A stretch of DNA of 64,000 bases. Source: Escherichia coli O157 typing phage 7. The position numbers were made by a program, and so were the translations under genes. Location of the stretch: sequence record KP869105; one strand, written 5' to 3'. Positions within the stretch are counted from its first letter, which is position 1; each line of letters opens with the position of its first letter. The notes under the pieces are model-generated. The model made no database searches. It was not told where the DNA came from and worked only from the letters and a program-made list of their open reading frames with translations. This document shows, in pieces, positions 18,693-37,541 of the stretch.

Positions 18693-20870
18693 TTAGGCCG
18701 CAAGGGCCTTCATAGTTTTAGCGATTTGGGAAACTTCATCATCACTTAAAGAATTGCGATAACCGATGAAGTCGGAAACAATACGGAATTTCTTGGTAAA
18801 CTCAGCAACCATTTTATCACTGTTTTTTGAAGCATTATTTGATAATACATCAAAAAGATTAGTTACCGTCCAGATGTCATGACCGATGGTATCTTTTCCA
18901 CCATTAAAATATACACCGCGCAATGAACTAACTATATTAGCGAGTCGTGTATATTCTTCAGAAACTTCATCTGTACTGAAGTACTTCATCATAAAATCTA
19001 GCTCAGGATACTTGATAATTTTATCAATATATCGTTGAGCTGAACTTGAATAACCTACATACTTATCATAATCTACATCATCAAAAGCATCTACATATAA
19101 ATCACGCAAAGCTTCAAAAATACATTGGCACTGACCGAGTTCTTTTACCTTTTTCTGTAAAAGCGGACGAATAACATAAAATTCATTAATGCCAATAAGA
19201 TTAGCCATACGAATCAAAATATTCATAGATGGATGACAAAGTGATGTAGTACCATCCATAGAGAAAATATCAGAACGATGCATATACGCTACATAACCAG
19301 TAATTTCATCTGCTTCTGACGTAAGTGTAAATAGTTCCTCTTTTTCCCAACGCCCATCTTTAATTTCAAATTTAAATGCTGTAGCAGCTTTAGGACGAGG
19401 AGCTTTACTTTTAACTACCTTTGGAATATAGCTTTTAACTAAAGTTTCAATTTCTGACAGATAATGAATGTTAACTTCATCACTTTCAAACATTGCCATA
19501 ATATCAGGTAGTAAATCAATCTGCGATTCTACTTCCGGATTAATAAACAGAAGACGCTCATTGTGATGAATATTCAAAGTGTTATTAAATTCACTATCAT
19601 CTAGCGCATGTGCTAATCCACGGACAATATTAACACGATTTTTAATATTATCAATAACGATATTAATTTTTGTTGTATTAATACCAAACAGACGATAACT
19701 TGATGCAACGGCTGAAGTTTCATGACTTTGCTTAATGCGTTTCAGTCGAGGGTCAAGATTTACTTCATACACCACGCCTGCATTACATAACTTACTGTCA
19801 GGTTCAAACATGCTCTGCATCTTTTTATATGACAGATTTTTAGTCGTGAATTTGACTGAATTACTAATCATATAATCTCGAGCAGAATACCCCATCTTCA
19901 TCAATTCACGATATGTGTGACGGGGAGATGTAGATTCTTTAAATCGTTTTACATCTTCATTAAATGCTTTCTCACTAAGCTCTTTAACTCGTTCAATAAT
20001 ATTTTTACGAGTACGATCATCCAATGAAAGAGCTTCACGTGATGGAGCAATATCAAGTGAACCCATTGGAAACTTAATGTAATTCACTTCATTGCGAATG
20101 CTTAGCCAGTTACGGTCTCTAATAACGCCATCGATAGGATAAACAATACCGCCATAGATAGCATATAATCCACCACGATCAGGCCAGTATCTTTCTGGAT
20201 TTACACCGTAATAATCATCAAAATCCGGAAAATAATCAATTTCACGGTCAAGACCATTAATAATAGCCAAATCTTTGAACGGTCGCATGATATAAGAAAC
20301 TTCATAAGCAAAGTTTCTAAAGTCTTTTTCTTCAACTGGAACTACGATTTCAATACCAGTTTTATCATCTGGACCCATTTCTTTTACGAATGTAGGTTTA
20401 ATCTGTGGGCCATCACCATCCATGTAAGCTACATAACCACGAATTTCACCTTTATGATACGAAGTAATACTAAACGTATCAGTATAACTAAACGGAGATT
20501 TAGAACCTAAACCAAATCCGCCAATGAAATCGTTAGATTCAGCCTTAGATGAACTGAAGTATGAATTATACAAACCAGGAGAATTATCATCACCCTGAAT
20601 ATCAAAATCACTCATACCCGGACCAAAATCTCGGCAAACAAATCGTGGATCTAAACGTCCAGGAACTTGAATGATAAATTTTTCAGGATTTCCATTGAGA
20701 GCATGGGCATCAATCATGTTGGTAATCAATTCACGAACAACTGCGCGAATTTTGTTTGTATACAAATCAGATGACAGAATTTTAAATACTTTAGGAGATG
20801 CTGTGATGCTAAATGCTTTTGATTTAGAACCATTACCAAGAATTGTTTCTTTTTCAGTGGTGATAATCAT
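18693..20870 (-). CDS. rIIA: rIIA protein (GHKL ATPase-like)
   Basis: 725-aa ORF, identical length to T4 rIIA; N-terminal ATPase motifs ([17 protein letters not shown]). Confidence 0.95.
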
Positions 20871-34861: not shown

Positions 34862-35062
34862 ATGGTACAAAAATTAATGGCACTTGTTAATGCCATCAAA
34901 GGTAATAAGAAACGTATAGCTTTTACTATTTCTGCTATGGTAGGAATTTTACTCTGGAACTTTATTTTATCACCAATTGCAATTGCACATGGTGTTAATA
35001 TTCCAGTAGTTACTCTTGATACATTTGTAGATTTAGCATTTGCTTTAGTTGGGTTAATTTAA
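34862..35062 (+). CDS. Small membrane protein on plus strand between genes 56 and 61
   Basis: 66-aa ORF with strong AAGGAGGA RBS 5 nt upstream, two hydrophobic segments; late-promoter-like AATAAATA at 34832-34839; stop overlaps gene 61 stop convergently. Confidence 0.55.
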   Translation: MVQKLMALVNAIKGNKKRIAFTISAMVGILLWNFILSPIAIAHGVNIPVVTLDTFVDLAFALVGLI

Positions 35063-36087
35063 ATCTTAGCATATTTAGATAACCGCATTTTAGCCATCAA
35101 CCCCTGGGCAATATTATTTTTCATATATTCCATAATTTGTTCAGGGGTTGCACCTTCCTTTCTAATCATATCATTAACATCTTTTGATTTCCAGGGAGAT
35201 TTATCCCAAAACATAACCCTTTCTCCTGCATCAACTAATTTAGTCATTCGTTTGATAGTGTCAGGGTGACGAGGTTCATTATCTAAAACCCACACTCGTC
35301 TATCTTTAAATGGAACAATTTCTAGGTCTAATTGACCGCCAGTAATGGCTATACCATTTTCAATAAAAAGTGAATCTATAGGTCCTTCTAGAACATATAC
35401 ATCGCCATCTTTAACTCGTTCGACTCCATATATTTTTGTTGCCTCAGGATAAGCTTTAATGGTGATATATTTTTGAGGAGCATCTTTCTTTAATGCACGT
35501 CCTTGAAAAGACTCAGCTTTTCCATTAGCATTATAAATTGGAATAACAAGACGAGGCTCAGAAATTTCCTTTTTATATGTTCCTGGTGCTATGCTATTAA
35601 CTAATTTAGGCCATTCAGTTGTAAACCAAAGATATTTCCATTTATCCTTTGGAATACAACGAGCTTTTACGTATTTTATAATTGGATGGTCTTCCGCCAG
35701 TTTATCTAATCTAACACATGACGGAAGAGATTTAATTATTTTCTTCTCAGGTTGTTTAGGAAGTTCTTTAGGTTTTTCTACTGGACGACTTTTACCTTTT
35801 TCTTTTCTTATTTCAAAGATATACTCACGATATAAATCAGGTTCAAACTCCTTTAAATATATTCCGATTGGTGCATGATAGTTACAGTTATAACAATGAA
35901 TATTTCCTTCATTATTATCACCATAATACCATCCACGAGCTTTATTCTGGTCGGTTTTTGAATCTCCACAAACAGGGCATCTAAACCGTAATTTAAAAGT
36001 TGAACTATTATTTACTTGTGTGAATTTAGGTAAATGAGCTAATGCACGGTATGCAAACTCATTATCAATCCAAGGTATTGATGACAT
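35059..36087 (-). CDS. 61: DNA primase gp61
   Basis: 342-aa ORF, identical length to T4 gp61; N-terminal zinc ribbon CPVCGDS...CYNCNYH and TOPRIM core. Confidence 0.95.
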   Translation of the reverse strand: MSSIPWIDNEFAYRALAHLPKFTQVNNSSTFKLRFRCPVCGDSKTDQNKARGWYYGDNNEGNIHCYNCNYHAPIGIYLKEFEPDLYREYIFEIRKEKGKSRPVEKPKELPKQPEKKIIKSLPSCVRLDKLAEDHPIIKYVKARCIPKDKWKYLWFTTEWPKLVNSIAPGTYKKEISEPRLVIPIYNANGKAESFQGRALKKDAPQKYITIKAYPEATKIYGVERVKDGDVYVLEGPIDSLFIENGIAITGGQLDLEIVPFKDRRVWVLDNEPRHPDTIKRMTKLVDAGERVMFWDKSPWKSKDVNDMIRKEGATPEQIMEYMKNNIAQGLMAKMRLSKYAKI

Positions 36088-36089
36088 TT

Positions 36090-36254
36090 TTACTCTTCTT
36101 TTTCTTTAGATTCCTCTTTTTTCTTTTTAGGAATCTGTTCAGGACCTTTATTTACTACAGCGCCTGATGTTGTTCCAGTAGAGATATTTTCAGGATTACC
36201 ACCTGAATCTCCAGCGACCATATCTTCTTTGATAAATTCTTTATATGTTTTCAT
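36090..36254 (-). CDS. Small charged ORF (54 aa) immediately upstream of gene 61
   Basis: Manually translated MKTYKEFIKEDMVAGDSGGNPENISTGTTSGAVVNKGPEQIPKKKKEESKEKEE; below ORF-track cutoff. Confidence 0.4.
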   Translation of the reverse strand: MKTYKEFIKEDMVAGDSGGNPENISTGTTSGAVVNKGPEQIPKKKKEESKEKEE

Positions 36255-36300
36255 ATTAACCTCTATTCATAAAAGCATTAAAAATTTGGTCATCAATAGA
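36252..36300. repeat. 49-bp direct repeat copy A (3' end of ORF 36256-36612)
   Basis: 46/49 identical to 36610-36658. Confidence 0.85.
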
Positions 36301-36612
36301 TGGAATAGCAACCTTTTCGGCATCATTTAGCAAATCATTAATTTCATCAGATAACATAACATATGTGCCTTTATTTCCTGTAATTGTTACTGCACAATTA
36401 CGAACGTTTTCTTTATCAAATTTTAGGTTAATATTTTCGTAGTGAAAATCCTTTAATGCCGAATATATCTTTAAAATGAAATTGTCTTTTACTACAATAA
36501 ACCCAACCTCACTATTAAAACATGGTTCATGGAAACTGTAATAAACCTTTTCATCTATAAAATCGTATGAAATTTTTTCCATTTTTAAATATGAAAATTC
36601 AGAACTATACAT
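36256..36612 (-). CDS. Hypothetical protein, one-domain member of a paralog pair (C-terminus PSIDDQIFNAFMNRG)
   Basis: 118-aa ORF; shares FIVVKDN motif and near-identical C-terminal 14 residues with ORF 36614-37255. Confidence 0.6.
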   Translation of the reverse strand: MYSSEFSYLKMEKISYDFIDEKVYYSFHEPCFNSEVGFIVVKDNFILKIYSALKDFHYENINLKFDKENVRNCAVTITGNKGTYVMLSDEINDLLNDAEKVAIPSIDDQIFNAFMNRG

Positions 36613-36658
36613 ATTAACCTTTATTCATAAAAGCATTAAAAATTTGATCGTCAATAGA
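36610..36658. repeat. 49-bp direct repeat copy B (3' end of ORF 36614-37255)
   Basis: 46/49 identical to 36252-36300. Confidence 0.85.
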
Positions 36659-37255
36659 AACATTTACTTTAGACTGTTCTTCAAACGGTAATTCATATCC
36701 ACATATTACAATTTTGTGATCGATACCAAAATACACAGAAGCAATATGATTAATATTATTTTCAGTGAAATCTAAATCAACATCAATATCTTTTTGACTA
36801 ACGCTCAAAGGATAATTAATACGAATAATTCGATTATCTTTAACAAAGATTCCACCGACATACTCTGTGTTGCGTTTAAAGTTTACACGTTTCCTAAATG
36901 AAAAATATTCAGGTTCTTTATGAGCCCGACTCATAGGACACAATGAGTAGCTAGAATAAGAGATGTCAAATCCTACACCTTCAATATGAGCCAACGTGTC
37001 ATGATTAAACCAATTATAATCATATGCCAAATCCATTATATTGTAATATGTGAAAGGCACCGGATTAACATCATGTGTTGTACCTTTAAAATCTGCCCAG
37101 GCAACGATTTCGTTATCTTTAACAATTACAAAAATTGTGCCAATAAGATATCCACGGTTATTTTCATCAGGCGTTATATTATAACATTGCGCATCAGGAA
37201 ATTTACCGTATTTAAACGGTGGATTTTTGTGCATATAATAAATCATATTATTCAC
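36614..37255 (-). CDS. Hypothetical protein, two-domain member of a paralog pair (C-terminus SIDDQIFNAFMNKG)
   Basis: 213-aa ORF with two (I/F)xVKDN(E/R)I motifs. Confidence 0.6.
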   Translation of the reverse strand: MNNMIYYMHKNPPFKYGKFPDAQCYNITPDENNRGYLIGTIFVIVKDNEIVAWADFKGTTHDVNPVPFTYYNIMDLAYDYNWFNHDTLAHIEGVGFDISYSSYSLCPMSRAHKEPEYFSFRKRVNFKRNTEYVGGIFVKDNRIIRINYPLSVSQKDIDVDLDFTENNINHIASVYFGIDHKIVICGYELPFEEQSKVNVSIDDQIFNAFMNKG

Positions 37256-37541
37256 CTGTGATTTCGGTTACGATATTTTTGTTATTAAAGTTTTTATCGC
37301 AATACAGAACATAATTATACTGCATTACACCACCTGATTTAAGCTGTTTTTGTACTTCAACTTTCATATTGGGGCGATCACGCTCAACGATATTCATAAT
37401 ATCCGCTTCAATTTGAGTTTCAACTTCAGTCTGATCTGCAGTCATAGACCATTCACACAAGTCTTTATCATATCCTGCCATAGCAGGCTGAGCAGCACAA
37501 GAAGCCAAAGTAAAAATTGTAGCAAAAATAAATTTTTTCAT
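37248..37541 (-). CDS. sp: Spackle-like periplasmic protein (Sp/61.3)
   Basis: 97-aa ORF (T4 Sp 97 aa) with N-terminal signal peptide MKKFIFATIFTLASCAAQPAMA; located between 61 and 41. Confidence 0.7.
   Translation of the reverse strand: MKKFIFATIFTLASCAAQPAMAGYDKDLCEWSMTADQTEVETQIEADIMNIVERDRPNMKVEVQKQLKSGGVMQYNYVLYCDKNFNNKNIVTEITGE

Follow-up and report, generated by a model that had tools for sequence, protein, structure and literature searches.

The gene that follows adfA in the T4-like phage wV7 appears to be an old, selectively maintained relative of adfA, the gene for anti-DarT factor A, and not a recent copy of it. We consider it likely that four things hold together at this locus: the larger gene of the pair is adfA, the smaller encodes an inhibitor of a different toxin, the 49-bp repeat in which both genes end serves three functions and offers a site for recombination, and the interval that holds the pair is a variable slot.

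The two genes lie in a 64,000-nucleotide stretch of Escherichia coli O157 typing phage 7 (KP869105; hereafter the window). The region is 100% identical to Escherichia phage wV7, a T4-like Tequatrovirus, and every gene at the locus is on the minus strand:

35059-36087, minus strand: primase gene 61
36090-36254, minus strand: gene 61.1, the downstream neighbour, with its ATG within repeat copy R1
36256-36612, minus strand: 118-aa paralog (RB32ORF033c, phrog_4122), single-domain AdfA family
36614-37246, minus strand: adfA (T4 gene 61.2), anti-DarT factor A, 210 aa, ATG at 37246
36614-37255, minus strand: mechanical open reading frame of adfA, 213 aa from a GTG at 37255
37248-37541, minus strand: sp (spackle), the upstream neighbour (Pfam T4_Spackle, E 1.4e-44)

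Both reading frames and the adjoining spackle gene were found where an initial annotation, made from the letters alone, had placed them. The ATG at 37246 is a likelier adfA start than the GTG; the same start is annotated in RB51 and in cluster P0006, and the spackle stop codon is followed by a single T and then by this ATG (TAATATG). The order is syntenic with T4 61-61.1-61.2-sp and continues past spackle with 61.4 (tifA), dmd, and helicase gene 41. That the neighbourhood is a host-interaction region, as had been proposed, agrees with the description of dmd-tifA(61.4)-adfA(61.2) as an anti-toxin-antitoxin island, with dmd directed against RnlA, tifA against ToxN, and adfA against DarT (PMC9391042). 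Elsewhere at the locus, a 66-aa hydrophobic reading frame on the plus strand (window 34862-35062), between gene 56 and the primase gene, is annotated in RB51 as RB32ORF030w and has conserved counterparts in T2 and KMB22.

The larger gene is adfA. Its 210-aa product matched the Pfam profile PF23813 (AdfA) over profile positions 1-211 (E 8.9e-138, 457 bits against a cutoff of 27) and is 75% identical to T4 gp61.2. The gene occupies the position of T4 61.2 between sp and 61.1, and it is annotated as 61.2 in RB51 and AR1. Its identity as the characterized anti-DarT factor had escaped the sequence-only annotation. Work from the LeRoux laboratory established that AdfA (T4 gene 61.2) counters the DarTG1 toxin-antitoxin defence, whose toxin DarT1 is a DNA ADP-ribosyltransferase; that RB69 escapes DarTG1 through the AdfA change R164H; and that in a two-hybrid assay AdfA with His164 binds DarT1 while the Arg164 form does not (PMC11257639). 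The Arg164 of RB69-type AdfA aligns with the His in NNINHIAS of wV7 AdfA, and by this alignment wV7 AdfA carries the residue-164 allele (His) that is reported to bind DarT1. The codon and its counterpart in the small gene map as follows:

36746-36748, minus strand: AdfA His codon, equivalent of residue 164 (position from sequence mapping, role from PMC11257639)
36397-36399, minus strand: paralog codon for Asn72, opposite AdfA residue 164 in the alignments

Among AdfA alleles that are accompanied by the paralog, some (Lutter and L005/Sf21-like; L003 and L005) have neither His nor Arg at the residue 164 equivalent. They carry Asn, a third allele type and the same residue that the paralog has at this position. 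The N half of wV7-type AdfA (window 36940-37246) is ~93% identical in DNA sequence to Mosigvirus copies such as that of JN02, whereas its match to T4 covers 63% of its length at only ~82% identity, a contrast that suggests that this segment may have been exchanged between genera.

The similarity of the 118-aa protein to AdfA extends well past the 14 C-terminal residues that the two share, both in pairwise alignment and in profile searches, so the paralogy that had been proposed is real. In BLASTP the protein matched residues 114-213 of the larger protein (38% identity, E 3e-10), and hhalign aligned it with the C half of AdfA over 82 columns (probability 98%, E 1e-13). It scored 32.6 bits against the Pfam AdfA profile (cutoff 27, E 6.6e-8), at profile positions 129-211 only. 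A counterpart of AdfA residues 1-110 is absent from the alignments and from the structural model, and the protein thus has a single module in place of the two-module, ~210-aa architecture. At the residue-164 equivalent it has Asn72 and not His, and it retains the C-terminal peptide DDQIFNAFM. The gene has its own PHROG (phrog_4122) and is annotated in RB51 as "RB32ORF033c, similar to gp61.2"; by sequence we take it to be a previously annotated, single-module member of the AdfA family.

Structural models of both proteins were of moderate confidence (pLDDT 69 for AdfA and 77 for the paralog) and were built on shallow alignments. In the model of the paralog, strands and helices follow one another as in the C half of AdfA. 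There is one further helix besides, and the tail makes up a terminal helix, which is a low-confidence part of the model. A MAFFT match of paralog residues 6-19 with the AdfA helix at 65-78 was rejected as spurious because the models give a strand in one protein and a helix in the other.

Recent duplication had been put forward as the origin of the pair, and here the evidence points the other way. Outside the tail, only 27 of 78 aligned residues are identical (35%). Third codon positions in the same region are also only 35% identical and are therefore saturated, so the divergence is old, and single-domain relatives with the same tail occur in other T4-like phages. Paralog orthologs from eight genomes gave dN/dS values of 0.08-0.39. 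From these comparisons the 118-aa gene is best described as an anciently diverged member of the AdfA family that appears to be under purifying selection and selectively maintained.

Could the small gene instead be the decaying and non-functional product of a duplication that copied only part of adfA? Its match to the AdfA profile is confined to the C-terminal half, T4 and about one-third of the Tequatrovirus-type records at this locus (~170 of ~470) do not have it, and T2, which has the paralog alone, gains no protection from it against DarTG1. Against decay, the full reading frame is intact and of constant length in 298 phage records, its orthologs show the low dN/dS noted above, 47%-identical orthologs exist in another genus, the paralog is the sole family member in 144 records, and its predicted fold is compact (pLDDT 77). 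We regard a remnant as very improbable and retain the reading of an old gene kept by selection.

The larger protein very probably harbours an internal duplication, and AdfA looks like two tandem modules of the paralog type:

37016-37150, minus strand: AdfA N-terminal module, residues 33-77 (beta-hairpin with VKDNEI, a further strand, helix)
36731-36871, minus strand: AdfA C-terminal module, approximately residues 126-172 (beta-hairpin with VKDNRI, a further strand, His164 helix)

When the profiles of the two halves were compared directly, the alignment was limited to 16 columns about VKDN-I (probability 12%). A C-type module HMM, made from eight diverse sequences with the tail removed, scored 14.6 bits against N-half residues 33-77, a score that was reached by none of 500 shuffles, and the alignment spans the VKDN hairpin through to the next helix (DVNPVPFTYYNIMDLAY versus DVDLDFTENNINHIASVY). 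In the AlphaFold model of AdfA (210 aa), an order of four strands and a helix appears twice, as strands 20-26, 38-43, 46-51, and 57-64 followed by helix 67-77 in the N half and as strands 114-120, 127-136, 139-146, and 151-159 followed by helix 162-173 in the C half. That the larger protein contains the domain twice is therefore supported, though on weaker grounds than the paralogy. Of the motif that had been given for the domain, the VKDN core is right; the E/R position is not, since the 118-aa copy reads VKDNFI, and the accurate form is V-K-D-N-x-I.

Both genes end in a 49-bp direct repeat, as had been noted, and the two copies are 46/49 identical:

36252-36300, no strand assigned: R1, covering the paralog's final 14 codons with their stop codon, the Shine-Dalgarno sequence GAGG, and the 61.1 ATG
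36610-36658, no strand assigned: R2, covering the final 14 adfA codons with their stop codon, AAGG, and the paralog ATG; 46/49 identical to R1

The repeat has no other occurrence in the window, and its match was reproduced in none of 100 shuffles. It encodes the last 14 residues of both proteins, SIDDQIFNAFMN(R/K)G, of which 13 are identical. R1 and R2 differ at three sites, the Lys/Arg codon and two Asp codons, all of which are outside the MotA box and -10 element described below. The tail peptide is invariant in every family member while its synonymous sites vary in distant phages (CAA/CAG, AAT/AAC, GCT/GCC/GCA, TTT/TTC; bases of the MotA box included), and selection therefore acts on the peptide. 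In the models, the tail forms a helix with a hydrophobic face of I, F, F, and M, at low confidence in both proteins, and we infer that it may be an interaction element.

The same bases also carry promoter sequences. On the coding strand, TAATGCTTTT is followed in both repeat copies by 12 nt and TAATAT. A MotA-dependent middle promoter has the box consensus wwwTGCTTtA at a distance of 12 +/- 1 bp from a sigma-70 -10 element (PMC2988021), and both copies fit this pattern with a single mismatch, at the last position of the box. The MotA box lies in the N-A-F codons, and the -10 element spans the stop and start codons:

36253-36277, minus strand: counterpart of T4 promoter P61 in R1 (MotA-box-like TGCTTTT, 12-nt spacer, TAATAT), predicted start 36246, inside 61.1
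36611-36635, minus strand: second P61-like copy, lying within the end of adfA, with transcription predicted to begin at 36604 (paralog codon 3)

The T4 middle promoter P61 has a listed start site at 19122 (PMC2988021, Table 1 in Hinton's review). Two T4 GenBank records carry no promoter features at this locus, and P61 was therefore placed from the review table. Counting from the TAATAT of the repeat copy in T4, base 19122 is exactly 7 nt downstream, and because of this register R1 is the wV7 counterpart of P61. R1 is thus a predicted MotA-dependent promoter in wV7, whose start is mapped in T4. Since the repeat carries the P61 sequence, wV7 has two copies of the promoter sequence; we found no description of the second in the literature searched, and the phage Lutter record annotates promoters at both copies. 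MotA-type patterns were enriched in the window (23 matches versus 7.8 expected). A scan for sigma-70 promoters and terminators gave 16 promoter-like sites versus 12.5 expected and no terminators, and did not help to interpret the locus. The predicted start at 36604 lies downstream of the paralog ATG (window 36604-36612; the Met11 codon is at 36580-36582). If the second copy is active, translation of the paralog from its middle transcripts could begin no earlier than Met11 and might not occur.

At the end of the repeat are the Shine-Dalgarno sequence and start codon (ATG) of the gene that follows, and the stop-T-ATG junction is kept almost everywhere. The tail is conserved for stacked reasons, namely the C-terminal peptide, the P61 promoter, and the ribosome-binding site and start of the next gene.

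An alternative is that the 49-bp identity stems from a recent tandem duplication or from ongoing gene conversion and marks a young recombination cassette. Of the 12 degenerate positions in the tail, 10 have the same codon in both genes, modestly more than the 6.5 expected from codon usage (P 0.03). The excess is clear when set against conserved residues in the rest of the pair, where codons agree at only 8 of 27 (Fisher P 0.0025). The two tails of Gaprivervirus VR20 (L007) do not differ at any synonymous site and use non-preferred codons, and in L005 synonymous variants are shuffled between the two copies. However, the gene bodies are synonymously saturated, family members in single-copy phages end in the same peptide, and the excess identity overlies a mapped promoter, which can explain it. 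The same three differences between R1 and R2 recur, moreover, in the wV7-like genomes with both genes that were examined (the window, L001, L003, and L027), and in L005 only the Lys/Arg difference remains. A recent or continually renewed repeat is in our judgement unlikely, although occasional gene conversion may have added some homogenization of the tail; the preferred reading remains that of an old pair whose tails are held alike by stacked functions.

Gene content between sp and 61.1 was compared across 50,697 GenBank phage records. The small gene was complete in 298 of these. The AdfA-paralog junction, indicating both genes, was found in 157 records, and the spackle-paralog junction, indicating the paralog only (e.g., Shinka and T2), in 144. 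The T4-type AdfA-61.1 junction gave 325 records; this figure includes wV7-type genomes in which two repeat pieces were joined by the search, so the records with AdfA only number ~170. On this evidence the sp-61.1 interval is a variable slot that can hold AdfA alone, AdfA and the paralog, or the paralog alone. The suggestion of a recombination cassette therefore holds as far as the small gene is present in some genomes and absent from others, but its recent origin does not.

T2 (L028, PV648363) has been described as naturally lacking an adfA homolog (PMC11257639). It carries the paralog directly after spackle at 1874-2230, 92% identical to that of wV7. In paralog-only genomes a 12-nt spacer, TTAGAGGTTAGT, precedes the ATG (L004 2486-2503; L026 2162-2173). 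Its similarity to the final bases of the AdfA tail, AGAGGTTAATATG, gives the impression that a two-gene ancestor lost adfA.

The T4 junction consists of the left flank of R1, the repeat, and the right flank of R2, and as a sequence it matches the product that would be expected of recombination between R1 and R2. We rejected the idea that the T4 arrangement arose recently in a wV7-type genome by deletion between R1 and R2, since the AdfA alleles are only 75% identical; the arrangements are therefore haplotypes of long standing rather than new deletions. T4 amplifies and deletes segments of the same island through microhomologies of 6-10 bp (PMC9391042), and because such short matches suffice in T4, a 49-bp repeat is a plausible recombination joint. 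The two repeat copies would offer a ready site for T4-type recombination, with precise loss or amplification of the paralog as the outcome.

Relatives of the family were found within T4-like phages. A profile search of 1.84 billion representative proteins returned 10 hits, all from T4-like phages; no distant family was therefore found, and the family is very narrow. The hits include the ~120-aa single-module proteins P0023, P0024, and P0028, all of which end in DDQIFNAFM and whose genes come immediately after that for spackle in T4-like contigs; P0024 and P0028 are metagenomic. Unclassified, ~173-kb T4-like metagenomic contigs are among the sequences in which single-domain relatives with this tail follow spackle. 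In Gaprivervirus VR25 and VR20, a 145-aa form (phrog_8539) precedes a 119-aa form, and the latter has 47% identity with the wV7 paralog. The family is thus present in other phages, the absence of which would have counted against the proposed relationship. Word-indexed searches returned close relatives only, and IMG/VR scans gave 15 and 7 loci. A profile search against PDB sequences gave nothing below E 0.3, and fold searches found no solved structure or other viral fold that resembles the AdfA family. VR25 and VR20 also have a second DUF7279 (TifA/gp61.4-like) gene of 73 aa directly downstream of the 119-aa AdfA-like gene (L006 2859-3080, L007 3019-3240, L034 1959-2180), beside the copy normally found upstream of spackle; duplication of the island's anti-toxin genes therefore extends to other genera.

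T2 bears on the function of the paralog. Without adfN, T2 cannot form plaques on DarTG1 cells, and native T4 AdfA likewise fails against DarT1 in the same assay (PMC11825919). T2 carries the paralog and nevertheless fails, so the paralog does not neutralize that DarT1 at native levels. The protein keeps the AdfA module with the DarT1-binding determinant, but with different surface residues. Our best inference is that the paralog inhibits a different toxin variant: it would act stoichiometrically to inhibit some defence toxin that is not the E. coli DarT1 used in the published assay, with the variable body setting specificity and the conserved tail helix acting as a common docking or assembly element.

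The paralog might instead be a partner or modulator of AdfA, for instance as a heterodimer formed through the C-terminal helix, or it might have a non-DarT target. Its position directly downstream of adfA, with translational coupling, in 157 genomes would suit a partner, as would the low model confidence of the shared helix in both proteins, which is expected of an interaction element, and nothing indicates that the paralog counters DarTG1. Against this, the paralog occurs without AdfA in 144 records and AdfA without the paralog in ~170. The region aligned with AdfA also includes the helix that bears the DarT1-binding determinant. We find a partner or non-DarT role rather improbable and favour an inhibitor of another toxin.

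In a broader reading, the ~120-aa single-module proteins would form a separate anti-toxin class, in which the invariant helix docks universally, the variable module chooses the target, and the tail is a portable recombination joint. We hold this to be possible but doubtful. If it were true, the target would be a DarT variant or another toxin that is not countered by AdfA or AdfN, and T-even phages would swap, stack, and drop inhibitor modules in the sp-61.1 slot with primase expression undisturbed.

AdfA is one of the few characterized phage inhibitors of DarTG defence, and its distribution has so far been scored as present or absent. Such surveys would miss the paralog, as in T2, and T4-type phages carry AdfA, the half-size gene, or both in roughly equal numbers. 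The paralog is a concrete candidate for unexplained anti-DarT counter-defence specificity, and together with AdfA it provides a natural series of constructs for mapping the toxin-binding part of AdfA. A single 49-bp stretch serves as protein tail, mapped middle promoter, and translation start of the next gene. Because P61 lies inside the 3' end of adfA, deletion of that end removes P61, and any editing or deletion of adfA must reckon with this overlap.

Among known systems, AdfA itself (PF23813; T4 gp61.2 and RB69) is matched by the 210-aa gene in locus, length, and His164, with 75% identity to T4. The 118-aa gene has in common with AdfA the C-terminal module, the residue-164 helix, and the invariant tail; it differs in lacking the N-terminal module (~110 residues), in having Asn at the 164 equivalent, and in being only 35-38% identical to the AdfA C half. 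The single-domain relatives (VR25 gp037 of 119 aa and gp038 of 145 aa; P0024 and P0028) share with the wV7 paralog the position after sp, the DDQIFNAFM tail, the stop-T-ATG junction, and the hairpin motif, but identity is 17-47%, the middle region of the 145-aa form is different, and their Pfam AdfA match is below the cutoff or missing. T2, described as without adfA, carries the paralog yet needs AdfN to resist DarTG1. The T4 promoter P61 and R1 have the same sequence, with the MotA box, the 12-nt spacer, and a -10 element in register with the listed start, whereas wV7 has a second copy upstream of the paralog. Finally, dmd (61.5) and tifA (61.4) are, like adfA and the paralog, neighbouring small early or middle genes. 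Each of their products inhibits one bacterial toxin by direct binding, and their copy number and content shift through short-homology recombination; they differ in being unrelated in sequence and in targeting RNases (RnlA and ToxN) and not DarT.
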